This document shows, piece after piece, positions 4,861 to 52,553 of a stretch of DNA of 64,000 bases (positions are counted from its first letter, which is position 1; every line of letters starts with the position of its first letter). Location: the IMG/VR virus record IMGVR_UViG_2617271087_000004. One strand, 5' to 3'. The notes beneath the pieces are model-generated. The model was given only the letters and a program-made list of their open reading frames with translations, was not told the DNA's origin and did no database searches. Source of the stretch: a virus (Duplodnaviria; Heunggongvirae; Uroviricota; Caudoviricetes). The position numbers and the translations under genes were made by a program.

Positions 4861-6053
4861 TAATCATCATCCCCGTACAGTTTGCGGGTAACTTCTTCGT
4901 CTTCCTCCTCGTCTTCGTCCAGATCCTGTTCAAGCCATGCTTCGTTTGATATGCCTTCCGCATCGACATCACCATAACCACCTGTATCGACGATATCGGC
5001 AATTTCTTCTCTACGATGCTCAATCCACAATGCGGCATCAGCGCGGCGGCTGGCGGCCCGTTCTCGCGCGATTTTATCCAGATCTTCAAGTGATGGAGCG
5101 CCAGATGCTGTTTGGTTTTCCTCATCATCGGTATTGGTCTTAGGAGCACGCAGATCGGCTTTGATTTGCTCCAGCATCAGGGGAGGCACTTTTCCTCCAT
5201 GCGCCTCGATGAATTCAGCCGCTTCCAGCACTGACCAGTTATTTTCACGCTTTCGTTCGTATGCCAGCTTAACAATGCCAGCTTGCCCCATAGATAAAGC
5301 GTGCTTTTCCGCCTCCCGGCTTTCTTTTCGATAGTTATTCCGGATGCTGTAAATGGTGTTGATCAGGCTGCTTATCTGCGCGGAACAGCTGTTTAGCATG
5401 CTCGCGATACGGTATTCAGGCGGAGTACCTTCATCATCGTCTTTTTGCTGATCGCGCATTTCCTGCACTAGGCGAATACACGTATCCCTGGCGTTCTCCA
5501 GCATAAGGAGATGAGAAAGAGACTTTTCCAGAAGAGTGGTTTCCAGAACATCGGCCCCGGACCGACGCAACATAGCGCGCGCGGCCTTCCGCGCTTCAAC
5601 GTTATCTATCAGGTAATCGCCAGCTTCGAATTCAAAGCGTTCACCATCATCATCCAGGGTGTCGCGTTCCAGGCGATCACGTAAGGTACGGTGGGCGCGG
5701 GTGATCACGTCATGATCATCAGAACGATCATTTATGCGCTTATTTTGGCGCTTAGCGTTCTCGACTGCGGCACTGACAACAGCATTAACTCTTTGTTTTT
5801 CAGCCATTTCAGCCACAATGTGATCACCTGCACGTTGATCATTAGCGTGATCAATGATCATGCTTTTTAGAGGCTTCCTGACTGGCTTATTTGGCTTGCG
5901 GCTGTCCGCTGTCCTGGTGTCTTCTTTGAAGGCACGGAGATAACGACGTGCGGTATTAGGGTTAAGATTAAACTCGGCGGCATACTGTGCGATGGTGTAA
6001 CCACCATCTCGCGCCAGGCGAGCAAAATTCTTCTTGTGATCGTCCCAGGTCAC
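4860..6053 (-). CDS. pacA: PacA terminase small / pac-recognition subunit
   Basis: 397-aa ORF containing the clustered GATC-hexamer pac site. Confidence 0.85.
5685..5860. other. pac: pac packaging site: two clusters of TGATCA/G hexamers carrying Dam GATC sites
   Basis: Four hexamers at ~5685-5730 and four at ~5821-5860 inside pacA. Confidence 0.7.
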
Positions 6054-6139
6054 TTATGCTTCCTTTCGTATAAAACTCTTTTTGACGCGAGGGTAACGAA
6101 AGTCACATGTCAAAAGGCCCGGAACGGGCAAGCAATCAA

Positions 6140-6592
6140 TCAGATACGTGCGGATGTGGCATTACCGTAATGACGGTGCTGACGGACCACCTTATTGAAA
6201 AGTTGACGCGCCATCACCCAAGGCTGGTGCTCCCGGCGTTCCTTTTCGTCCTGCGTCATATAGAGTTCGTTCTGGAGTTTTTCATCAAACCGGCGCGGAG
6301 CGCGGCTGCGGCGAAAGAATTCAGGATTCAGAGAGTGGATCTGAAATCTACGTGGGCGTGTACTGTCATCAATCAAAACAGACGAATACTTAGACACAGC
6401 GATAGCCTTTAAGCGCAGATAAACATCGCGCTTATCGACATCCAGATGCGGGTATTCCTTTTCAAGAATTGCTGCGAGTTCTTTCGCTGATAGAAGAGAT
6501 TTAGTGCGGATCATGTAATCCGCAATCTCGTACGATGTTATTCGTGAGTGATTTATTTCCATGAAGTGGCGTCCCTGCCAGTTAAGTAACAT
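6140..6592 (-). CDS. lpa: Lpa late promoter activator (alternative start at the second Met possible)
   Basis: 150-aa basic protein upstream of pacA with a C1-operator-like site upstream. Confidence 0.65.
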   Translation of the reverse strand: MLLNWQGRHFMEINHSRITSYEIADYMIRTKSLLSAKELAAILEKEYPHLDVDKRDVYLRLKAIAVSKYSSVLIDDSTRPRRFQIHSLNPEFFRRSRAPRRFDEKLQNELYMTQDEKERREHQPWVMARQLFNKVVRQHRHYGNATSARI

Positions 6593-10026: not shown

Positions 10027-10660
10027 GGTCCACCTCATGCTTTTCAGCCACCAGCGGCAATAAAGCCCTGGCCATCTTATGAACCAATAGTGCATCAATA
10101 ATGCCAAGCGTATGCCCCGGCTTAATGTTTAATGCCGCCTCAAGGCGACACCTTTCCAGGCCACTTTTCTCGGCTTGTTTATGATGATCTGGTGTAATAA
10201 CGTCGCCCAAAACACGGCTAATTCTTTCTCGTAATTGCTGGGTGCCAGCACACTTGATCGCTGTATCGTGGAGACGGTTAACCAGTTCGCGATAAACATG
10301 CGGCTTAATGCGGATACGTTCACCGGTGACGCCCTTTTCTGGTGCTGGCACCGAACTATCCGGAATATCCGGATAGTTGCCAGCCTCGTAAGCTACCCGC
10401 AGCCAGTGCATGAATGTTTCAATGGACACACAACCACAGTCCACATCGATTTTCCCGCGTTGCTGTTCCAGCCAATGCTCAAAATTCAATCTACACGTAT
10501 TACTTTCATGTTGCTCTTTTTGTCTCAAGGCCAGCATCTGCTTGGCTATTTCCAATACTTCATCTGCCGTATATCCAGCACCGTGACCATACATTTCGAT
10601 ACGGGAAATAATCTCTGATATGCGCTCTTCAGTGATTCTGGTCATTTCTTTTTGCGCCAT
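10010..10660 (-). CDS. hypothetical protein
   Basis: 216-aa ORF in minus-strand operon; no recognisable family. Confidence 0.5.
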   Translation of the reverse strand: MAQKEMTRITEERISEIISRIEMYGHGAGYTADEVLEIAKQMLALRQKEQHESNTCRLNFEHWLEQQRGKIDVDCGCVSIETFMHWLRVAYEAGNYPDIPDSSVPAPEKGVTGERIRIKPHVYRELVNRLHDTAIKCAGTQQLRERISRVLGDVITPDHHKQAEKSGLERCRLEAALNIKPGHTLGIIDALLVHKMARALLPLVAEKHEVDHANES

Positions 10661-11016
10661 TTCTTTTCACATTCCTTAGTCCATTCTTCAATGTTCATTT
10701 TGGCAATATCAGTCATTCCATCACCTAAGAAATACTTTTTCCGGTATGTCTTGCACTTAACCCACACTACAACAGCCACCAGCCAGAAAATAAAAGGCCA
10801 TACAGCAATACCAACGACAGCCGCGATAAAGCCCAATAGCCATAAATGAAGCTCTCCAACTTCTGTTTGCGGCAATATTCTTAAAGAATTAAACAGCAGA
10901 CTGAAGGAATGGTCGTATGCATTGGCGGTATAAGACATGCAATCCATATAATTAAAGTCATAGCCTGAGGCTGCCGCCCATAATGGGCGGTCAAGAAAAT
11001 GTTTTAGTGTCATCAT
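10642..11016 (-). CDS. hypothetical membrane protein (one TM helix, basic C-terminus)
   Basis: 124-aa ORF with hydrophobic segment LWLLGFIAAVVGIAVWPFIFWLVAVVVWV. Confidence 0.5.
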   Translation of the reverse strand: MMTLKHFLDRPLWAAASGYDFNYMDCMSYTANAYDHSFSLLFNSLRILPQTEVGELHLWLLGFIAAVVGIAVWPFIFWLVAVVVWVKCKTYRKKYFLGDGMTDIAKMNIEEWTKECEKKWRKKK

Positions 11017-11022
11017 ATAAAT

Positions 11023-11316
11023 TTAAGGTTCAGACCAGTTATCTTCAATAGCAATGCTTAATCTTTGTAGCCATTCTGCTAATTTCAGCATTGCTTCTCT
11101 TTCGCTTAAACCACGAGGAAAATCATCAAGCGAAATTGTTGGCTTGAAGCCCCCGTAATTATCCATTTCAACAGTCAGATTTTGCTCCAGCACGGTATTC
11201 CTTACGCGGCTATTGTGCCGAAGCAAATATACTGAACGTGATTTATTGGTTTTATGGTCAAACTGATATTCGGTAAGTATCATCTGGCTTTTGCCATGAC
11301 TATTACCTCTCCACAT
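11023..11316 (-). CDS. hypothetical protein (start moved to internal Met with TGAGGT SD)
   Basis: Track ORF 11023..11412; internal ATG at ~11316 has a strong SD and follows the small peptide ORF. Confidence 0.4.
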   Translation of the reverse strand: MWRGNSHGKSQMILTEYQFDHKTNKSRSVYLLRHNSRVRNTVLEQNLTVEMDNYGGFKPTISLDDFPRGLSEREAMLKLAEWLQRLSIAIEDNWSEP

Positions 11317-11323
11317 ACTTACC

Positions 11324-11446
11324 TCACTTAATAAAACAACTCCATGCGTAGTTGATGATTTTTTCCCACGTAATATAAATCTGCACTCCGGCAGTAAAAC
11401 CAAAGCCAACAATTGCTGAAAAAATCAAAACATTTACTTTTGACAT
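11324..11446 (-). CDS. 40-aa hydrophobic small peptide (MSKVNVLIFSAIVGFGFTAGVQIYITWEKIINYAWSCFIK)
   Basis: Short ORF below the track size cut-off; single predicted TM segment. Confidence 0.35.
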   Translation of the reverse strand: MSKVNVLIFSAIVGFGFTAGVQIYITWEKIINYAWSCFIK

Positions 11447-11494
11447 TATAAATTTTCTCTCGGTGTCGTAGGTGATAGCACCATAATTGATAAT

Positions 11495-11746
11495 TTAGTG
11501 AGTTAGCAGTTCCATTTTTTGGATGATTTCCGCATGAGCATCATCGTTATCAACACTTAGCTCGTTTAATGCTTCTCGCACTACATCAACTTCTTCAGGC
11601 TGAAAGAAGTCGTCGCGGTAATCACCAAATAGAACCGAAACCAGCCTGCCACCAGCAACATCAAGATTGGCGCTAACAGGTGGCTCTTTGCCATCCTCAA
11701 ATTCGACTACAAAAGTTAATTTTCCCATCGTTACCACCAGCGACAA
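11495..11746 (-). CDS. hypothetical acidic small protein
   Basis: 83-aa ORF. Confidence 0.45.
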   Translation of the reverse strand: MSLVVTMGKLTFVVEFEDGKEPPVSANLDVAGGRLVSVLFGDYRDDFFQPEEVDVVREALNELSVDNDDAHAEIIQKMELLTH

Positions 11747-11810
11747 ATTGAATACAAACCCAGTGCTGCCGCCATCACAATTCCTACCGTTGCGAATGCT
11801 TCAGGCCAGC

Positions 11811-12440
11811 TCATTGATTCACCTCCTGCGGCGGTTCTGGTAGCGGCATCCAGTGTGACGGTTTCCACGACGCACCAGGAATTATCCACCCATCATTAGC
11901 GTCAGGATGCCCCGGGATGTAAGTAGCCCATTTCATTCGCCAGTCACCTTTCCTGTCAAACTCCACGGCAACAAGAACGGCTGTTTTGGTATTCGGCATT
12001 CGCTCACTACAGCTTATCCAACCATCCGGAGTTACCGGAACTTGCGGAATGGCTGTCTGCTCTCGAACGTCATTAGGCGCTATAGGTTCTGCTGCCAACT
12101 GACTGGCATATTTGTTAATGGTAACGATTAGCTCTTGCTCGACCTCATCCAGACAATCACCGATACCTCGCCTGTCACCGTCAAAATCATCGAAATCGGC
12201 ACGAATCTTGGCAACCTCCCGGATTGCGGACAACACCTCACTAGGAATTACCGGATAGTTGGTTGACGTTTCCGCGATTTCCCGAAAATTATTGGTTGAC
12301 GAATTCTTGTTTTCCCGAAAGTTTCCGGACTGAAGCATGGCGGCGCGGCAGGCGTTCCAGCCATCTGCGTAACAATCTCTGTGTGTCTTGAAATATGTCA
12401 CCGCCCTTGGTACATCGTTTACGTCTATTTCATCCGGCAC
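11811..12440 (-). CDS. hypothetical protein with DUF551-like C-terminal domain
   Basis: C-terminus WISCSERMP...VLVAVE...SHWMPLPEPP resembles the phage DUF551 family. Confidence 0.5.
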   Translation of the reverse strand: MPDEIDVNDVPRAVTYFKTHRDCYADGWNACRAAMLQSGNFRENKNSSTNNFREIAETSTNYPVIPSEVLSAIREVAKIRADFDDFDGDRRGIGDCLDEVEQELIVTINKYASQLAAEPIAPNDVREQTAIPQVPVTPDGWISCSERMPNTKTAVLVAVEFDRKGDWRMKWATYIPGHPDANDGWIIPGASWKPSHWMPLPEPPQEVNQ

Positions 12441-12505
12441 AACCGGCGCAGGTGAGTCAGCATAAACAGGAATAACGTCCGGTTGCTCTTTATTGCTTTC
12501 ATCCG

Positions 12506-12694
12506 TTAAAGCCCAGAATAATTTCCCGGCCGGATGTTTGAAAAATAAGCAACTGGCTCTGCTTCCAGCGATGCCAGTGCAATTCGTGCCAGTTCTTCCG
12601 CTTCTTCTGCTGGCAGTACAACGTTGCTATCAGGTCCGTATGTTTCGCGCCACTGCTTGATTGTCAGCAGTCGCTCTTTGGTAATAGTGATCAT
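12506..12694 (-). CDS. hypothetical small protein
   Basis: 62-aa ORF with ATGA-type overlap to the upstream gene. Confidence 0.35.
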   Translation of the reverse strand: MITITKERLLTIKQWRETYGPDSNVVLPAEEAEELARIALASLEAEPVAYFSNIRPGNYSGL

Positions 12695-13278
12695 GCCGCG
12701 TTTCCTTCTTTCTTATTAACAATTACACCGTCATATATTTCATTAAGGTGCCCTCTCAACTCCATGCGCCTTAATGCAGATAACATGTAATCGCATTCAA
12801 CCTGCTTATTTCCAGTAAATGGCTTATCGTCAGGATTACCCCAACAGCAATTACCCTTGGGCCACCCATGTACTTTCCGTACTCTTCCGTTAACAACGTG
12901 AAGTAATCCCCAGCCAGGTGGTAAATCCTCAATTGAAATAATTCCCGGCTCACTAATAAAGAATCGCCAGTCGCCCATGCCAAGTGAGGGATTTTTACGG
13001 AAACGCTTTTTTCTATCTGCCAACAAGTCAGCACGAGAACACTTCGCCTCTATCAGGCATGATGCTGAATTTCTGAACCCCATAGCATCTGGCTGTTCTC
13101 CGGTACTGGTTACAGCTATAAAGCGGTCATGAAAACAAACCTTGAACCCGTTGCGCTTAAGGAACTTGTACGCAATTTGACAGAGTTCGCGGTGTGTTAA
13201 CGCCATATCACTCTCCTTTAGTGCGCAAATGGTTTTTCCAGCGGTTTTGCGCCGCGCTGGGCTTTTTGCAAAAACCAC
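12691..13278 (-). CDS. hypothetical protein, possible PD-(D/E)xK-type nuclease (start may be the internal Met MALTHREL)
   Basis: D...EAK motif (PDAMGF...CLIEAKCS) suggestive of a restriction-endonuclease-like fold. Confidence 0.4.
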   Translation of the reverse strand: MVFAKSPARRKTAGKTICALKESDMALTHRELCQIAYKFLKRNGFKVCFHDRFIAVTSTGEQPDAMGFRNSASCLIEAKCSRADLLADRKKRFRKNPSLGMGDWRFFISEPGIISIEDLPPGWGLLHVVNGRVRKVHGWPKGNCCWGNPDDKPFTGNKQVECDYMLSALRRMELRGHLNEIYDGVIVNKKEGNAA

Positions 13279-13396
13279 AATCCATCATCCCGTAATATTT
13301 CATCAACCCCATCCGTCGGTTGCTGAGTCTCACCCACTGCCAGACGCCAGGAGCGTTTCTACGAACTAACAGAATCTTTGCTTTACGGTTTTTCAT
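13208..13396 (-). CDS. small basic protein (MKNRKAK... N-terminus)
   Basis: 62-aa Arg/Lys-rich ORF; start overlaps the stop of the upstream paralogous small ORF (ATGA). Confidence 0.35.
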   Translation of the reverse strand: MKNRKAKILLVRRNAPGVWQWVRLSNRRMGLMKYYGMMDCGFCKKPSAAQNRWKNHLRTKGE

Positions 13397-13569
13397 CTTA
13401 CTGCGTACCCTTTCTTCCGCCTGTTCTGTGACGCAGTAGGCTTACGCTTTGCGGCAAAAGCCACCTGACCAAATGGATGGAGTACCGCTATCTTATGGTT
13501 GCTAATAACCAGCTCCACCACACGCACAGGCCGCTGTAAAAAAAGTCGTTTTGCCTTACGGTTTTTCAT
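13393..13569 (-). CDS. small basic protein, 57 aa (MKNRKAK... N-terminus), translationally coupled to the next ORF
   Basis: ORF below track cut-off with AGGAG SD; shares start-region DNA repeat with ORF 13208..13396. Confidence 0.35.
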   Translation of the reverse strand: MKNRKAKRLFLQRPVRVVELVISNHKIAVLHPFGQVAFAAKRKPTASQNRRKKGYAVR

Positions 13570-13741
13570 CGCTTTGCTCTCCTGCGTCTCTTTGCTGCTC
13601 GTCGTGCCGCTGCAATACCGGTATGGCGGCGCTTTGGTGCCGGGATGATGTTGTCAGCCATCAGGACATGTGGCTTTGCAATTAGCGCAGAAGCCCAAAA
13701 ACGAGTCGGGTACGGTAACAAGCTGATACATACCACACGCA

Positions 13742-14560
13742 CTACTCACCTCCGTTGATACGGATGCCAGCGGCGCGGATTGCAGCGATGACCTCAGAAA
13801 CTTTGTATGCCATTACCGTTTGGTAATCATCGTGAAAATCTGTTCGATGAAGCATGCTGCTACGTTCCGGGAGCGATATTTCCCGAGCATCCAGTTCCTT
13901 AACGCGTTCCTCCAGTTCGTAGACCCTGCATTGTTCTCTATCATCAATCAGATATAACCCAAGACATTCGCTTTCTACCCAACCGCCAAAATCATGATCG
14001 TAACGCTCACATGAAAACTCACCGTCACCGTCCTTTGTTGGAATGGTGTAACTATCTAATGGGCCACCATATGTCGGCACATTTCCCAATGTTGGATGCT
14101 CAATCCACATGAAAAATGCACGTCCGGTTATTGGGCAAATATCTGGCCGCCATTGGTTACGAACAGCCTTGGTTTCGGATAATTCTTCAGCGTGTTGTTT
14201 TACTTCCTCAAGCTCAACTCTCAGCTTCCCTACCGTTAGCGCAATCTCCTCGTTCTCCTGGTCGCGGCGTTTGATGTATTGCTGGTTTCTTTCCAGCTCA
14301 TCCAGCAGCGCCAAGACGGTAGCGGGATTGGCTGCGGCGATGAATTCAGCATTGGCCTGCTGTTCCATTTGGAAATCTTCATCGAAACCGCTTTCTGGAT
14401 GCGCTCCTTCAATTCTGCAAATAGGAATATATCCAGCAACTTCACGATGAATTAGCGCATCATCACCATCAAATCGGCTCTCTCCATATTCGAGCGACCA
14501 CTCACCACACGTTGCTTTTTCTGCCTTAGCACGCAGTGCCTGATAGTCAATCTTGCTCAC
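13742..14560 (-). CDS. Ea22-like protein
   Basis: N-terminal IDYQALR...NPATVLALLDELE motif typical of lambdoid Ea22-family proteins. Confidence 0.55.
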   Translation of the reverse strand: MSKIDYQALRAKAEKATCGEWSLEYGESRFDGDDALIHREVAGYIPICRIEGAHPESGFDEDFQMEQQANAEFIAAANPATVLALLDELERNQQYIKRRDQENEEIALTVGKLRVELEEVKQHAEELSETKAVRNQWRPDICPITGRAFFMWIEHPTLGNVPTYGGPLDSYTIPTKDGDGEFSCERYDHDFGGWVESECLGLYLIDDREQCRVYELEERVKELDAREISLPERSSMLHRTDFHDDYQTVMAYKVSEVIAAIRAAGIRINGGE

Positions 14561-15114
14561 TGGTTGCCTCCTTTGCGAAGCTGGGCAGCAAAGTCAACTA
14601 ACCACTCAGTCATTTCAACCTTCCCTACCAGGTCTGAACCAGGGTGCATACAGCAATCACTCTGCGCCGCTTTGAAATCCTTATACTCATATTCTTGGGC
14701 CACCAGATTTTTTGCAGCTTCTATAGCAGCATCCACCCCCTGCGCCCGCACTTCAGACAGGAAAGCATCGGTAGCTGGAGTTTCGCTGTGGTGTAGGGCA
14801 TCGTTGATAATCATTGCAGCAACACCAGCCTGCCCTGCATCCGTGACCGACACATGCTCAAGAGTTACGGCCATTGCGTGTTTCAGTCCGGCGTTCTCTG
14901 CCACCAGCGCCGCGAGATTAGTCTCAAGCTCTGCAATACGGCACATAGCATCAATATTTGTGTCTTCCAGCCGCTTAATTTCATCCAGTAGTGCCAGTGC
15001 CACCGATGGCGTGAACGCCATACGAAACGCCACAAAATTTTGATGCATAGGTTCTGTTTCTACTGCAACTGCCGCATCTCGCAGTGCCTGATAGTCAATT
15101 GTCATTCTCGCCAT
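14557..15114 (-). CDS. Ea22-like protein, paralogue of the downstream gene
   Basis: Shares IDYQALR...ALALLDE N-terminal motif with ORF 13742..14560. Confidence 0.55.
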   Translation of the reverse strand: MARMTIDYQALRDAAVAVETEPMHQNFVAFRMAFTPSVALALLDEIKRLEDTNIDAMCRIAELETNLAALVAENAGLKHAMAVTLEHVSVTDAGQAGVAAMIINDALHHSETPATDAFLSEVRAQGVDAAIEAAKNLVAQEYEYKDFKAAQSDCCMHPGSDLVGKVEMTEWLVDFAAQLRKGGNQ

Positions 15115-15746
15115 CCTTCACAGTTGTAATCACTACAGCCTTCAAAATCATATGGGCTGTACTGCCAGGTTATTTTTCCGCAATGCGGACAATTCCAACG
15201 CACCTTCCCGCTTCGCGACTTCTTTCTTCTGTTCTGCTCTTTCAACCAGTCAGGCATGACCAAACCTGCGCCCTGAACCATTGTTCTGCGGCTAAAGTTA
15301 TTGATATTGAACGTCCGACGCTTTGCTGCATCAGCAATGGAAAATGGCAACCAAACTATTCCTGGTTCGTTTTTGTTGGCGACGCTAAAGATGGTCGCTT
15401 TACTGAAGTCATCTGTTGGCAATCCACCGTGTTGAAGCCAGTAAACATCGTTGCCGTTCCAGCTACCTTTTTTGTAGGCCACATACGCAGTGCAATCTGA
15501 CTCAATCAGGCTTTCTGTGGGGATGTACTGGCAATCAACGTGCCACACAGCCATTGCATCCACGCTATCAGCGCAAACAGGCTGATCGATATCTCGCCCA
15601 CAATTCCAGGCTTTTTGGGCTTCTTCCAGCGTGTAAACATGAGCGCGATCGATATCAGAACTGTAACCATTGCCGTTATGGCAATGGAATGAGGCGTTAT
15701 TACCCACAGTTTCACGCAAGCACATCATGTAAAAGCGGTTATTCAC
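15102..15746 (-). CDS. hypothetical protein with C-terminal CPHCG...C...C zinc-ribbon-like motif
   Basis: 214-aa ORF. Confidence 0.5.
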   Translation of the reverse strand: MNNRFYMMCLRETVGNNASFHCHNGNGYSSDIDRAHVYTLEEAQKAWNCGRDIDQPVCADSVDAMAVWHVDCQYIPTESLIESDCTAYVAYKKGSWNGNDVYWLQHGGLPTDDFSKATIFSVANKNEPGIVWLPFSIADAAKRRTFNINNFSRRTMVQGAGLVMPDWLKEQNRRKKSRSGKVRWNCPHCGKITWQYSPYDFEGCSDYNCEGWRE

Positions 15747-16023
15747 TGGTTGCCTCCGCTTCCCACGTTTTCAGACTTTCACCACAGAACGGGCAAAATG
15801 AAACTCGAATAGGCGATTTAGAAAATTCACCAGACCGCAGCATGATCAGGTCTTGTGAATGAATTAATTCATGGTTATAGATTTTGTATTTCAGCAGACC
15901 TTTTCGCGTCGTGTATTCAGCGTCATGCTCCAGGGATTGTGCCAACGCCGCGCACGGCTCTATCTTGTTGCCATTAATTTGGCATTTTGACTCACTCACT
16001 GGTTGCCCCCTGAATACGCTCAA
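15739..16023 (-). CDS. hypothetical protein with CPFCG motif
   Basis: 94-aa ORF overlapping its neighbours by a few nt. Confidence 0.4.
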   Translation of the reverse strand: MSVFRGQPVSESKCQINGNKIEPCAALAQSLEHDAEYTTRKGLLKYKIYNHELIHSQDLIMLRSGEFSKSPIRVSFCPFCGESLKTWEAEATSE

Positions 16024-16573
16024 ACTCTATTACCCACACCCAAGGATTAGCGTTCCAACTATCTTCGCCATAAATTGATTTCCATAGGCTACGGAAACCT
16101 GGGTAATGCTTATCGCCAATGAGGGTCGATTCTGTTGGTGCGCCCTCAGCCCTTGCATCACATTCGCTGATATCGTTCAACCGCTCAACGCGCACGTTGG
16201 TAATTTCCAGAAGAATGCGCGATGCCCAGCGCGGCATGTGAATTGATGGCGTCCACTTTTCTGATACTGGTTTATTACAAACCTCGACCGGAACCCGGTG
16301 CGTTTGTTCTGTCCAGGAGTTACGCACGCTTGCGCGATAAACCAGCGTTGCGACGTCCGTCGCTTTGCCATGTACCCGGTAGGTTTCGCGAACCCAAATA
16401 CGATCGCCCGGTTGACCATATGGACAATGCTTAGCAAGCAACTCTGCGGCCACTGCCCGTCCATAGAATTTTTCTTCAACAATCCTGCGAGTCTGTGTTT
16501 TATTCCCGCCAAGAATTACCCGGACCATCTCATCGTTGAAAATCATGCCGCGCTCTTTCACTTCGCCTTTCAT
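15992..16573 (-). CDS. hypothetical phage protein, possibly ASCH-like
   Basis: 193-aa ORF; family assignment from motif memory only. Confidence 0.45.
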   Translation of the reverse strand: MKGEVKERGMIFNDEMVRVILGGNKTQTRRIVEEKFYGRAVAAELLAKHCPYGQPGDRIWVRETYRVHGKATDVATLVYRASVRNSWTEQTHRVPVEVCNKPVSEKWTPSIHMPRWASRILLEITNVRVERLNDISECDARAEGAPTESTLIGDKHYPGFRSLWKSIYGEDSWNANPWVWVIEFERIQGATSE

Positions 16574-16582
16574 GCATCCCCC

Positions 16583-16669
16583 TTACCCATGTGCGACGAT
16601 GCCGCCAAAAGTGATAGAGAACAGCCAGAAATAGATCGCGGCCATAATGATTTTGAATGCCGTGTTCAT
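16583..16669 (-). CDS. 28-aa hydrophobic peptide (MNTAFKIIMAAIYFWLFSITFGGIVAHG), first ORF of a C1-operator-controlled operon
   Basis: AGGAG SD 8 nt upstream of ATG; ORF below the track size cut-off. Confidence 0.4.
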   Translation of the reverse strand: MNTAFKIIMAAIYFWLFSITFGGIVAHG

Positions 16670-16751
16670 ATTTTCAGCTCCTGTGATTGATTGGATACAT
16701 GCCGCGCCTTGCGGCATGTTTTTATTTTCACTTTCTCCGTTTTAAAAATCA

Positions 16752-16768
16752 AGATTTATTAGAGCAAT
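16752..16768 (-). promoter_or_regulatory. C1 operator
   Basis: agatttattagagcaat, 16/17 to consensus; upstream of the minus-strand operon starting at ~16669. Confidence 0.6.
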
Positions 16769-17274
16769 CATTGTTGATGAAGAAGCGCATTTTCATACTC
16801 CCTGACCATTAACGTAAGCACGCCGTGCCTCCTGAAAACACGCGCCACTTCAATCTTATCTTCCAGCGCGAACGCGATTTTACTTAGACCAATTTTCTTA
16901 AGGAGATCAATCTTTGCTGGGCCGTCATTTCTGTCATCGGTGGCAGGACGCATAGATAGCAAAGGCTCAGCCCCGTTTGTTACGTACTTCCGCAGCCAGG
17001 CTCGTGTTTTATCCCTTGCGATCTCACAGCGCCCGGTTACAAACCAGACCGTGTAAACGTTAAATAACTGGCGCACCATATCAATAACTGAAGTGATGGG
17101 AGTATCGGTGTCACAGGCGAGATTAAACTCGTTCCAGTCCTTTGTTAATGCACCTTTACCTGGTGGCGGAAGCAAATGCAGTCTGTCTTCAGTTGCCTCT
17201 GATATTGTTCCATCAATATCAACTATGACGATATACGGACGTTCCTGGTGTGCGTGTTTATTGAAAATACTCAA
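16768..17274 (-). CDS. HAD-superfamily phosphatase-like protein (candidate P1 Pap)
   Basis: DIDGT motif near the N-terminus. Confidence 0.55.
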   Translation of the reverse strand: MSIFNKHAHQERPYIVIVDIDGTISEATEDRLHLLPPPGKGALTKDWNEFNLACDTDTPITSVIDMVRQLFNVYTVWFVTGRCEIARDKTRAWLRKYVTNGAEPLLSMRPATDDRNDGPAKIDLLKKIGLSKIAFALEDKIEVARVFRRHGVLTLMVREYENALLHQQ

Positions 17275-17346
17275 ATGCCCTCCTCATTGGACGAAAAAAA
17301 TGCTGGTGGGCGCACTCCACCAGCATTAAAAGTGACACTGTAACTG

Positions 17347-18609
17347 TCAGCGAACGTAAATAGTGCCGCCGTTCTCTTTTTCCCATGCATCGCTACGTGC
17401 ATAGCAAACATCGAGAAGTCTTCTTGCCGCTGTTTCCTCTAAACCCAATTCGACAACCAACTGCTCATGACGGCGGGTAACCACATCAAACAGGGTATGC
17501 AGCCCTTTAGCTGCCAGATCATCAATAAATTCCGGTTCGAACGGCAGCTCTGCATCTGCCAACATAACCTCTTGCGCCCACTCGACACGGCGGACCAGTT
17601 CCGGGCGGCGGCTTTCCATCTCTTTACAGATCAATTCATGGAAGAACTCTACCCAACCTTCCGGCTGGAACTCGCGGAAAATGGCCAGCGGCTGGAAGTT
17701 TGGCATCAACCATTCGTTGATTCGGATATCAATGGCATAGCCCATGTCGCAGCAGAACTGATAAGCAAAGTCCAGCTTAGAAACGATATAAGGACGCTCG
17801 TTATTGAACTCTTTAGGCGATGAGATCCCATAAGCCAGGAGGCGCGGGAAGAAGGAGATTTGCCCTAACGTCGGATGAAGTTTGCTTGCAGGGAAACGGC
17901 GCTCAGTAATGCCATACATTTCCTTCTTGAGCGTCGCAAATTTGGCATTCTCATTAACCAGCGCGGTAACCTCTGCTTTTTTATTAGCAAATGCCACGCG
18001 CGCCTCGCTTGCATCTTTAATAGTTTTTTTGAGCTGTTGGTTAAGGTCGGCGACCTGCTTACGCAGTTCCTGTCGCTCGCTTTTAGCTTTGTTATAGCGT
18101 TTCTCAAGGTTAAAAGGATCAAGTTTCATGATCTCTTTATATTGAGATTTTAGCGTTGAAATCTGTGAGTTCCGCAGTTCAACCATCGCGGTCATTTCAT
18201 TGAGTTTTGTTTCCAGCTCAATGCTTATACGTTCGGCATTATCAGCACGCTGGTTGGCGTCATGCGTCGCATCGTCGATCGCGTCCTGTTGCTGGCGTTT
18301 CAAATGTTCAATTTGTAGCTGAAGCTCTTCAATTTCTTTACCCTTCAGACCGAGATCCAACTGCATATTTTCAGCTGCATCTACCAGGGAGTTATGGCTA
18401 TCAGCTTCTGCGTTATAAACATCAATAAGCTGTGCGTGAAGCATCTCCGCTGACTGAACCGCATTATCAAAAAAACGCGCTGTGAGGTCATCACAACTAA
18501 CGCGGCGTTGCGCGGCCCGGATGTTCTGGATAATGGCCGGGATACCGGCATTCAGGACGTCAGGGATAGATACATTTTCGATTGATTGGTTTTGTGCTGA
18601 AGTGATCAT
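17347..18609 (-). CDS. hypothetical protein with long N-terminal coiled coil and globular C-terminal domain
   Basis: 420-aa ORF; heptad-rich Q/E/K/L N-terminal half. Confidence 0.6.
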   Translation of the reverse strand: MITSAQNQSIENVSIPDVLNAGIPAIIQNIRAAQRRVSCDDLTARFFDNAVQSAEMLHAQLIDVYNAEADSHNSLVDAAENMQLDLGLKGKEIEELQLQIEHLKRQQQDAIDDATHDANQRADNAERISIELETKLNEMTAMVELRNSQISTLKSQYKEIMKLDPFNLEKRYNKAKSERQELRKQVADLNQQLKKTIKDASEARVAFANKKAEVTALVNENAKFATLKKEMYGITERRFPASKLHPTLGQISFFPRLLAYGISSPKEFNNERPYIVSKLDFAYQFCCDMGYAIDIRINEWLMPNFQPLAIFREFQPEGWVEFFHELICKEMESRRPELVRRVEWAQEVMLADAELPFEPEFIDDLAAKGLHTLFDVVTRRHEQLVVELGLEETAARRLLDVCYARSDAWEKENGGTIYVR

Positions 18610-18843: not shown

Positions 18844-18909
18844 ATTGCTCTAATAAAAAACGTGATGAGTGTACATCACGTTTTAAAAATATGGAATTAT
18901 TAGAGCAAT
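18844..18909. promoter_or_regulatory. pair of inverted C1 operator sites flanking a ~30-bp spacer
   Basis: attgctctaataaaaaa (18844-18860) and ggaattattagagcaat (18893-18909). Confidence 0.6.
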
Positions 18910-35876: not shown

Positions 35877-36225
35877 GTTGTAACCCTTGAATATCAACCA
35901 CAGAAAGCTCGTTTTTGTAGAAAAAGGCCAGGTTGAGGCACCCCCTAGTTTGAGCGTATGAGCTGGGACCAATTTCGTTCTTCCAGACAAATGGCTTCAA
36001 ATCCGTACGGCGAAGCATAAAAACGCGATTTGTTCCGCTCTGATTCCCAATGAGGCAAAAGCCTTCTTTCACCTTGATAGCCTGCAAGTTGTCGAGTTCA
36101 CCGCTGGTTACACGGCTATCGAACTCTTTGCGGCTTATTAGCTCCATCTGCATCTGACGACTCCAAACAAATACCCATTGAAGGGCGATGGCTGAATGGT
36201 ACCGAAAACACGACATAAAAAACAA
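35869..36225 (-). CDS. uhr: hypothetical protein upstream of hrdC
   Basis: 118-aa ORF; start adjacent to a C1 operator. Confidence 0.5.
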
Positions 36226-36241
36226 TATTTATTAGAGCAAT
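36225..36241 (-). promoter_or_regulatory. C1 operator
   Basis: atatttattagagcaat, 16/17. Confidence 0.6.
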
Positions 36242-48496: not shown

Positions 48497-48652
48497 TTAC
48501 CTTTCAGATTCGTAGGCTGTGAAGACAGTGACCTCCGTCTGGCTGGTTCGGATTCGTACCTCGCAGAGGTCTTTCCTCGTTACCAGTGCCGTCACAATGA
48601 CGGTTAAACAGATGACGATCAGAGCGATTAACATCGCTTTTTGCTGCTTCAT
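48497..48652 (-). CDS. Hok/Gef-family type I toxin, 51 aa
   Basis: MKQQKAMLIALIVICLTVIVTALVTRKDLCEVRIRTSQTEVTVFTAYESER matches the Hok LTRK.LCE.R...EV..F.AYES signature. Confidence 0.8.
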   Translation of the reverse strand: MKQQKAMLIALIVICLTVIVTALVTRKDLCEVRIRTSQTEVTVFTAYESER

Positions 48653-48710
48653 AGCCTGCTTCTCCTTGACCTTTTGGTCGGTAAGAGGCTAATCTACGTA
48701 TGCTAAGCAT
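48504..48710 (-). CDS. Mok-like overlapping reading frame
   Basis: 68-codon ORF starting upstream of and overlapping the hok-like ORF in another frame. Confidence 0.5.
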   Translation of the reverse strand: MLSIRRLASYRPKGQGEAGYEAAKSDVNRSDRHLFNRHCDGTGNEERPLRGTNPNQPDGGHCLHSLRI

Positions 48711-48833
48711 AGATATGGCCTCAGATTAATGTTAAGCGTCTTGCAGGACGCGTAATGTTATCTGGGGCTTTCTTCTATCTGCTTTTCGGGTAATGCCTGA
48801 AGCAGATAGCCTCAAGCACCCGCAACGATTGTA

Positions 48834-50874: not shown

Positions 50875-50891
50875 AAATTTATTAGAGCAAA
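50875..50891 (-). promoter_or_regulatory. C1 operator upstream of kilA-repL (Op53-like)
   Basis: aaatttattagagcaaa, 16/17. Confidence 0.7.
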
Positions 50892-52239: not shown

Positions 52240-52420
52240 CAGGTTTAACAACCTGCTACCCGCTGCTAAACAGGTGGCAGGACGTGACGGGGTTAGCAGA
52301 CTGGCGTTAGTGAAACCAGCAGGCCGAAGCCTCCCCATCACGCCCCACCATAATTTGGGCGTAACGCGGTTTTACGGACACAAAAATACCGCAATATCGG
52401 ATATCTGCGGTTGTCCGCAC
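52240..52420 (-). ncRNA. c4: ImmI leader region expected to encode the c4 antisense repressor RNA (boundaries approximate)
   Basis: Non-coding stretch between the Op51-like operator and icd, with hairpin at ~52388-52412; c4 sequence not recalled. Confidence 0.35.
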
Positions 52421-52536
52421 TAACATTCAGGCTGCTAAACCCGGTCGCAGAATTTGCTACGACGGCGGAACTATAAGCCTGAACGATTAAAAGGTCAATA
52501 TGATGCGAAAAGATAGCATTCGCGACTTAAAAATAC

Positions 52537-52553
52537 AAATTTATTAGAGCATT
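52537..52553 (-). promoter_or_regulatory. C1 operator upstream of c4-icd-ant (Op51-like)
   Basis: aaatttattagagcatt, 16/17. Confidence 0.7.

Follow-up and report, generated by a model that had tools for sequence, protein, structure and literature searches.

Two candidate small membrane-protein genes in a C1-controlled operon of a P1/P7-type phage-plasmid

Enterobacteria have small inner-membrane proteins with a single membrane pass, such as CydH/YnhF, CydX, AcrZ and MgtS, that serve larger membrane proteins as subunits or modulators, and small hydrophobic proteins without known function are a common, known kind in phages. Here we describe two short hydrophobic peptides encoded by a 64,000-nucleotide (nt) stretch of viral DNA (Caudoviricetes; IMG/VR record IMGVR_UViG_2617271087_000004), the whole of which is hereafter called the window. 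Peptide A, of 28 amino acids (aa), is encoded at 16583..16669 and peptide B, of 40 aa, at 11324..11446, both on the minus strand. A first-pass annotation had singled out these two open reading frames (ORFs) and given their translations; both proved exact, and only the strand was absent from it. Judging by its best megablast matches, the window is a P1/P7-type phage-plasmid: positions 10500-17500 are closest to the P1-type phage-plasmids Salmonella phage SJ46, P7, P1 and RCS47 (96-99% identity), and for parts of that segment there are further matches in early accessory ('ea') regions of lambdoid and Shiga toxin (Stx) phages. Like CydH, CydX, AcrZ and MgtS, the peptides are 28-40 aa long and combine one hydrophobic helix with a conserved helix face carrying small-residue motifs (GFGxxAG in peptide B). 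They differ from that class in lacking any sequence relationship to it, in being phage-encoded and in standing under repressor control.

We put at roughly 65% the probability that peptides A and B are genuine genes for small single-helix inner-membrane proteins and ordinary cistrons of a C1-repressed accessory operon, namely the Op88 operon of P1 or 'hea' operon of P7. In the lysogen neither peptide would be produced; synthesis would begin once C1 is inactivated or upon infection. Once translated and inserted into the inner membrane, each may bind or perturb a host membrane component rather than act as the toxin of a toxin-antitoxin pair. Peptide A would be the promoter-proximal gene of a conserved expression module composed of operator/promoter, 5' stem-loop, CA-rich leader, Shine-Dalgarno (SD) sequence and ORF, and peptide B a stand-alone member of a 40-aa family found at the distal end of lambdoid 'ea' strings (Ead/Ea22, DUF551, Lar-like). 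The two peptides are mutually unrelated and have only the operon in common. P1 is among the most studied phages, and a conserved, repressor-controlled 28-codon gene between Op88 and pmgT is still unmarked in it. Recognising peptide A corrects the operon map of a widespread phage-plasmid family, and the two peptides provide defined small-protein families whose targets in the host membrane can be sought. The finding is of use in curating a model phage and does not overturn the current understanding of phage biology.

The hydrophobic character of both peptides is clear from their best 19-residue Kyte-Doolittle windows, which score 2.10 and 1.83 for the 28- and 40-aa peptides, respectively. For a 46-aa homolog of peptide A, AlphaFold predicted a helix at residues 3-27 with confidence and gave the tail low confidence; for peptide B it predicted a single helix spanning residues 3-39, with a predicted local distance difference test (pLDDT) score of 92. 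The N-terminal two thirds of peptide B are hydrophobic and contain a G-x-G-xxx-G motif, and its C-terminal third is more polar. The first-pass annotation had described both peptides as of single-transmembrane size and likened them to type I toxins or small membrane regulators. One hydrophobic helix is indeed what we find, and comparison with small membrane proteins is fair, whereas the likeness to type I toxins did not hold up, as set out below.

Peptide A as a gene of P1-type elements

Peptide A, MNTAFKIIMAAIYFWLFSITFGGIVAHG, extends from an ATG at 16669-16667 to a TAA at 16585-16583, comprises a single predicted transmembrane helix and is the first cistron of the operon. The strong SD that had been claimed for it is present as AGGAG at 16678-16682, 8 nt upstream of the ATG. 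It had also been placed first downstream of a C1 operator, and it is the first ORF with an SD behind the operator at 16752-16768. The 28-aa form in the window, P1 and P7 (the P1 type) is one of three divergent types. Homologs of a 46-aa Salmonella type, MHTVFKLAMAAFYIWIFTIVFTGIAKATPVNASEVGVRTIYCDLGE (loci L006, L183 and L185), and of a 48-aa third type, MNTAFKLAMAAFYFWIFCIAFNGLVKAAPTLQVIYHNDAPASNQEGSF (locus L186), occupy the same syntenic position. Twelve core residues are invariant in the three lineages (M1, T3, F5, K6, M9, A10, A11, Y13, W15, F17, I19 and F21), while nucleotide identity between lineages over the first 26 codons is only 60-76%, with the differences biased to third codon positions. 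In the peptide A frame, the proportion of synonymous sites that differ between lineages (pS) is 0.56-0.80, compared with 0.16-0.29 for nonsynonymous sites (pN). The resulting ratio of nonsynonymous to synonymous divergence (dN/dS) is approximately 0.1-0.2 (Fisher p ~1e-4 for each lineage pair; synonymous sites saturated), and frames +1 and +2 of the same region give ratios of 0.6-1.9. A comparison of conservation at the peptide and nucleotide levels had been recommended as a check on both ORFs, and both pass it, the peptides being kept while the nucleotide sequence diverges. This signature suggests that peptide A is a translated gene under purifying selection.

The existence of the two ORFs alone proves nothing, since 9 kb of this DNA contain 132 ORFs of at least 25 aa, making such a size common by chance. 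What lifts both of them above chance is codon-periodic divergence together with low dN/dS in the stated frame only. A case for chance ORFs, or for non-coding sequence conserved for some other reason, could appeal to the great number of ORFs of these lengths in the window and to the lack of annotation of either peptide in reference P1 or P7. We consider it extremely improbable given the frame-specific purifying selection and neutral-looking off-frames in both families, and given that length and start context are kept across divergent lineages. Within the P1 clade, peptide A is intact in 92 of the 93 complete ORF copies among 94 loci, the 94th having run off its contig after 9 codons. These loci were chosen independently of peptide sequence, being anchored on the 5' untranslated region. 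A first P1-clade selection test had been rejected as circular because its loci were picked by peptide identity.

Conservation in peptide A is concentrated in a transmembrane core of about 25 aa, and the tails vary. From this pattern the functional part of peptide A appears to be the ~25-residue transmembrane core, with a C-terminal tail that is probably dispensable. In the 46- to 48-aa forms, the hydrophobic stretch is followed by sequences (AKA|T and VKA|A) that resemble an AxA signal-peptidase site and then by a polar tail of 19-21 aa, as might be expected if these forms were secreted or processed, their core being a Sec signal peptide and the 28-aa form a truncated remnant. We regard this explanation as very unlikely, because the conserved part is the hydrophobic core and not the would-be mature peptide, and because the tails show little conservation, the most abundant lineage either lacking them or carrying others in their place. 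In addition, the uncharged stretch comprises 19-22 residues, which is long for the h-region of a signal peptide.

Gene callers place the start of peptide A further upstream, at codons that are not conserved, yielding forms of 44, 49, 64 and 76 aa. SJ46 (6031-6165), for example, annotates a 44-aa 'membrane protein' from an upstream ATG, and beyond the reference records its sole trace is a 'hypothetical' or 'membrane' protein in some entries, with a start that is probably wrong. The 44-aa start (ATG 16717), used for SJ46 and by several pipelines, was rejected because its ATG lies within a hairpin with no SD before it, and because its counterpart in the Salmonella type is out of frame and L186 has none. 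The SD-preceded ATG chosen in the first-pass annotation is kept in all peptide A lineages, and among the starts in use the 28-aa one alone is conserved with an SD.

The 28-aa sequence occurs at 100% identity in P1, P7, SJ46, RCS47 and other punaviruses, and peptide A is present in 873 plasmid records. The reference P1 record leaves its position (84392-84475) unmarked, with Op88 and two predicted promoters, P1pmgT and P2pmgT, on one side and pmgT on the other; the P7 record does not annotate it either. Peptide B belongs to an already catalogued family, whereas peptide A is absent from Pfam, NCBIfam, PHROGs and the reference P1 and P7 annotations; its best PHROG match reached only E = 0.16. For both peptides, searches of Pfam (60KD_IMP, 12.8 bits against a cutoff of 35) and NCBIfam (best CydH, E = 0.15, 12.1 bits against 30) returned nothing above cutoff, PADLOC returned no match, and PDB profile searches gave E values of at least 0.19. 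A scan of one genome per bacterial species detected peptide A at two Escherichia loci, and a word-indexed search recovered 27 clusters. A HMMER profile search run exhaustively over 1.84 billion representatives gave 12 hits, all of the peptide A family and none outside P1-type elements. By these searches, the family seems to be confined to P1-type elements of enterobacteria. A literature search on the peptide A ORF, Op88, P1 small proteins and P1 ribosome profiling (Ribo-seq) found nothing.

Approximately 350 copies of peptide A lie on plasmids that are conjugative or mobilizable; the two examined are IncF, and in them the peptide A segment is P1-type DNA that has been carried over and is adjacent to a type I restriction locus. 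At locus L005 (NZ_CP034786.1, 1700-1960) the peptide A ORF is intact and accompanied by pap and the operator. At locus L004 (NZ_CP020496.1, 3950-4085) IS1 removed the peptide A promoter and first codons, leaving a truncated remnant. At both loci the pap-Op88-peptide A segment is joined to an hsdR/S type I restriction-modification locus, and the junction falls a few bases from the peptide A stop.

The operator-hairpin-leader module and the boundary behind it

Between ~9.4 and 18.6 kb of the window every gene is on the minus strand, and peptides A and B both belong to one long gene string that starts behind a C1 repressor operator. This operator, ATTGCTCTAATAAATCT (16752..16768, minus strand), has one mismatch to the consensus and overlaps the -35 element of the operon promoter. 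The homologous site is annotated as Op(hea) in P7 and as OpmgT (formerly Op88) in P1, where promoters P1pmgT and P2pmgT are annotated as well, and the operator is kept in the divergent lineages L183 and L186. Two predicted sigma-70 promoters were transferred to the minus strand of the window by homology from the P1 GenBank annotation: promoter P1, with -35 TTGATT at 16747-16752 and -10 GAAAAT at 16724-16729, and promoter P2, with -35 TTGCTC at 16762-16767 and -10 TAAAAC at 16739-16744.

The three peptide A lineages are built alike: the C1 operator is followed after ~45 nt by a GC-rich hairpin of 23 nt, then by ATCAATCAATCA[CT]nGGAGC and the ATG. In the window the hairpin has a stable 9-bp GC-rich stem (16697..16719, minus strand; sense-strand fold -20 kcal/mol, z = -3.0) and lies at or near the 5' end of the operon mRNA. 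The predicted -10 of P1pmgT in the P1 record would put the transcription start about at the hairpin foot, from which we infer that the operon mRNA begins with a stem-loop, which would stabilise it, and that an open and efficient ribosome-binding site (RBS) comes next. The hairpins of L183 and L186 have the same length (23 nt) and the same distance to the ATG but another sequence, the stems being ACATGCCGC...GCGGCATGT versus AGGCCAC...GTGGCCT. Lineages were folded separately, and MAFFT did not put the two 23-nt hairpins in structural register; each lineage's hairpin folds, and the leader and SD are predicted to be unpaired in all three.

The leader itself, CAATCAATCA (16684-16693), forms with the AGGAG (16678-16682) a block predicted to be unstructured (16678..16693, minus strand) that is conserved in the three lineages. 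The block ATCAATCAATCA[CT]nGGAGC (window 16677-16693, minus strand) is invariant even though synonymous sites of the ORF are saturated. Such invariance reflects constraint at the nucleotide level, and the block might serve to enhance translation or as a binding site. A C4 antisense RNA acting on the leader block was rejected as a candidate, since 66% of shuffled leaders pair as well or better by duplex energy.

At its other end, the module has a sharp edge. Similarity among P1, P7 and hsd-linked plasmids stops within a few bases of the peptide A stop codon, and the gene behind peptide A has been swapped by recombination right at that codon. In P1 this gene is pmgT, whereas P7 and the window carry an unrelated Upf86.8-type gene (phrog_874); in 20 of the 94 sampled loci only a terminator and a convergent hsdR follow. 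The second cistron of the window (193 aa, 15992..16573, minus strand; P7 Upf86.8-like, phrog_874) has its ATG 9 nt after the peptide A stop. The stop-start distance is likewise 9 nt in P1 and P7 and is 4 nt in L183, and stop and start overlap as TGATG in L186. In several database copies the TAA is replaced by a Tyr codon, after which unrelated tails follow. Taken together, the varying tails and the breakpoint at the stop suggest that the conserved unit runs from the promoter to the transmembrane core. Peptide A thus marks a sharp recombination boundary for the exchange of accessory cargo, including a type I restriction system.

These features are also those of a cis-acting leader ORF whose translation couples to the downstream gene and whose product has little or no function in trans. 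Its translation, started at a strong and open RBS, would keep ribosomes on the mRNA 5' end, pass them by termination-reinitiation to any gene that recombination has placed 9 nt downstream or in overlap with it, and protect the message from Rho and RNase E. This is the main rival of the reading of peptide A as a small membrane protein, and we consider it unlikely. Like upstream coupling leader ORFs, peptide A directly precedes the first long gene and stays while that gene is exchanged, its stop codon is close to or overlaps the next start, and its C-terminal tail is freely variable. Altered forms of peptide A, G22D and G23D included, are also enriched where no gene follows (10/20 versus 3/71 loci in the L089-L182 IMG/VR set). 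Unlike such leader ORFs, it is under purifying selection at the amino-acid level (dN/dS ~0.1-0.2), and invariance of the 12 core residues would be unexpected if only the act of translation mattered. Its hydrophobic helix is retained across ~40% nucleotide divergence, and the ORF and operator are found intact where only a terminator follows. As for the enrichment, the loci without a following gene have more synonymous diversity too and are not phylogenetically independent, so that it is confounded by shared ancestry; it could reflect relaxed constraint or lineage structure, and we treat it as a hint, not a result.

A further reading extends the leader-ORF idea to the whole segment. Operator/promoter, 5' hairpin, CA-rich leader and a short hydrophobic leader ORF would constitute a portable 'expression adaptor', in which translation of peptide A, possibly membrane-tethered, would license whichever cassette recombines behind the stop. 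We hold this to be quite improbable, although it would explain the breakpoint at the ORF end in P1, P7 and hsd-linked plasmids as well as the read-through tail variants.

Comparison with type I toxins

In type I systems such as hok/sok, tisB/istR, ibs/sib and ldr/rdl, a plasmid or prophage encodes a short hydrophobic peptide with one transmembrane helix. Peptides A and B, at 28 and 40 aa, are likewise small hydrophobic transmembrane peptides below ~60 aa, and in size, hydrophobicity and single helix they resemble Hok, TisB and Ibs-type toxins. One or both might therefore damage membranes in the manner of type I toxins or of phage 'kil' functions, held by C1 with or without an antisense RNA, so that host arrest or depolarisation would follow on induction. 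We think this improbable, and for its type I version we find no support, although any peptide of this kind could prove toxic when over-expressed. No Rfam antitoxin family was detected at E <=5 in 10500-17500, where the only hit was a sub-threshold GcvB-like one on the plus strand (E = 0.36), and the hok/sok model (Rfam RF01794) had no match at either peptide. By contrast, the same scan found a hok/mok/sok locus at 48497-48821 of the window (minus strand), comprising sok RNA (RF01794, 115 bits) at 48647-48821, the 51-aa Hok MKQQKAMLIALIVICLTVIVTALVTRKDLCEVRIRTSQTEVTVFTAYESER at 48497-48652 and an overlapping 68-aa Mok at 48504-48710. In further contrast to that locus and to type I systems in general, which consist of a stand-alone locus with a sequestered SD, both peptides are cistrons in the long operon that runs on the minus strand from a C1 operator; the peptide A promoter is C1-repressed rather than constitutive, and the peptide A RBS is predicted to be single-stranded.

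Three observations could be read in favour of an antisense RNA. Plus-strand hairpin and T-run at 16697-16719 in the P1 type could end such an RNA over the peptide A RBS, the GcvB-like hit falls on that same stretch, and at 11255-11319 the plus strand has weak promoter-like sites directed into peptide B. No plus-strand promoter was found near peptide A, and promoter-like hits in the region are below chance (5 versus 9.2 expected). An antisense RNA from plus-strand 16697-16719 was rejected as a conserved feature because it is limited to the P1 type: no antisense promoter or terminator is conserved across the peptide A lineages, L183 and L186 having neither an antisense T-run nor a promoter. The T-run, moreover, is merely the complement of the A-rich -10 of the peptide A promoter. 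Considered by itself, plus-strand 16697-16719 is the strongest intrinsic-terminator-like site of the region, with a 10-bp stem followed by TTTTTATTTT, and is oriented opposite to all genes. It might stop stray antisense transcription in P1-type elements.

Peptide B and the operon shared with peptide A

Peptide B, MSKVNVLIFSAIVGFGFTAGVQIYITWEKIINYAWSCFIK, extends from an ATG at 11446-11444 to a TGA at 11326-11324 and is a member of phrog_5525 (E = 1.2e-24, 86.7 bits, residues 1-40 aligned with positions 1-40 of the 40-position profile). The family comprises 58 clusters at 90% identity, almost all of 40-41 aa, and has the consensus MSKCxALLYAMVxGFGLAAGIRVYIAWESLINLAWSAIRG. Peptide B occurs in 225 plasmid records at 60-100% identity and is called 'hypothetical protein' in SJ46 and others. 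Escherichia, Klebsiella and Citrobacter harbour relatives with ~50% identity, carried there by Uetakevirus-type and lambdoid (pro)phages. When prophage copies of moderate divergence were compared, dN/dS was 0.08-0.18 (p 1e-4 to 3e-7) in 12 of 15 pairs, with off-frame ratios above 0.9; the three closest pairs were uninformative for selection. Between the window copy and the Uetakevirus type, pS was 0.73 and pN 0.36 (p = 8e-4). In the P1 clade, 78 of 80 peptide B loci keep an ATG-initiated full-length ORF, the exceptions being one TTG in place of ATG and one match beginning at residue 7; two other loci have short read-through tails.

With the phrog_5525 family peptide B shares its length and the pattern G14-F-G16...A19-G20...I25-x-W27...I31-N32...W35. 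It differs from the main family in being only 45-53% identical to it, in its weak SD and in a 48-nt upstream gap in place of a stop-start overlap, and it resides in a P1-type phage-plasmid instead of a lambdoid or Uetakevirus-type prophage. The window copy appears to be a divergent branch under weak constraint. Upstream of it lies a 77-aa gene (phrog_3876; 11495..11728, minus strand) and downstream a 96-aa gene (phrog_1258; 11023..11313, minus strand). Peptide B had been described as sitting just ahead of a gene with a strong SD, and the arrangement was confirmed: the peptide B stop overlaps the GAGG SD of the 96-aa gene, whose ATG is 7 nt past the stop. Prophage copies of peptide B, on the other hand, have an AGGAGG SD and a start that overlaps the stop of a preceding DUF551, Ead/Ea22 or Lar-like gene; these homologs close an accessory string, ahead of a regulator and terminase or of the nin region. 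A two-gene module for peptide B was rejected because neighbours are non-homologous between contexts, and the phrog_1258 gene after the window copy has no homology to the gene after the Uetakevirus-type homologs. These non-homologous flanks suggest that peptide B moves as a stand-alone mini-gene.

Several observations weigh against the view that both peptides are functional small membrane proteins. For peptide A, diversity in the P1 clade is too low for a strong selection test, the variants amounting to ~9 synonymous and ~11 nonsynonymous changes, the latter mostly singletons, so that the test is low-powered. Enrichment of altered peptide A at loci without a following gene could mean that it partly serves the downstream cistron. 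For peptide B, the selection signal within the P1 clade is weak (p = 0.13-0.35 for the window copy versus L264 or L263), and the window copy has a weak SD of its own (GAGAG, 11457-11461) with 10-nt spacing and may be under relaxed constraint. Finally, the searches against families, structures and defence models gave no match for either peptide that points to a molecular target.

Peptide B is located 5.2 kb further down the same strand than peptide A, and no convincing terminator was found between them. Knock-down of pap, pmgT, pmgU and pmgV by CRISPR interference left P1 plaque formation unimpaired (PMC10695390), and the dispensability of the operon for plaque formation fits an accessory role. 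Lambdoid 'ea'-region genes occupy part of the operon (11811-15114, minus strand), namely Ead/Ea22-like genes at 13742-14560 and 14557-15114 and a DUF551 protein gene at 11811-12440; these Ead/Ea22-like and DUF551 genes have 94-97% DNA identity with Stx-converting and other lambdoid phages.

The window contains 15 C1 operator-like sites (<=3 mismatches to the consensus), compared with 0.33 expected by chance. They include sites at 1842-1858, 1925-1941, 36225-36241, 50875-50891 and 52537-52553 and overlapping or paired sites at 32938-32965 and 18844-18909. Outside the operon, the window carries the P1 immI region (52270-52476, minus strand), with a C4 antisense RNA (RF01695, 70 bits) at 52270-52355 and its a1/b1 target (RF03163) at 52424-52476. 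An Rfam gathering scan also detected three phage-encoded tRNA genes on the minus strand, at 30054-30126, 32130-32202 and 32208-32280.

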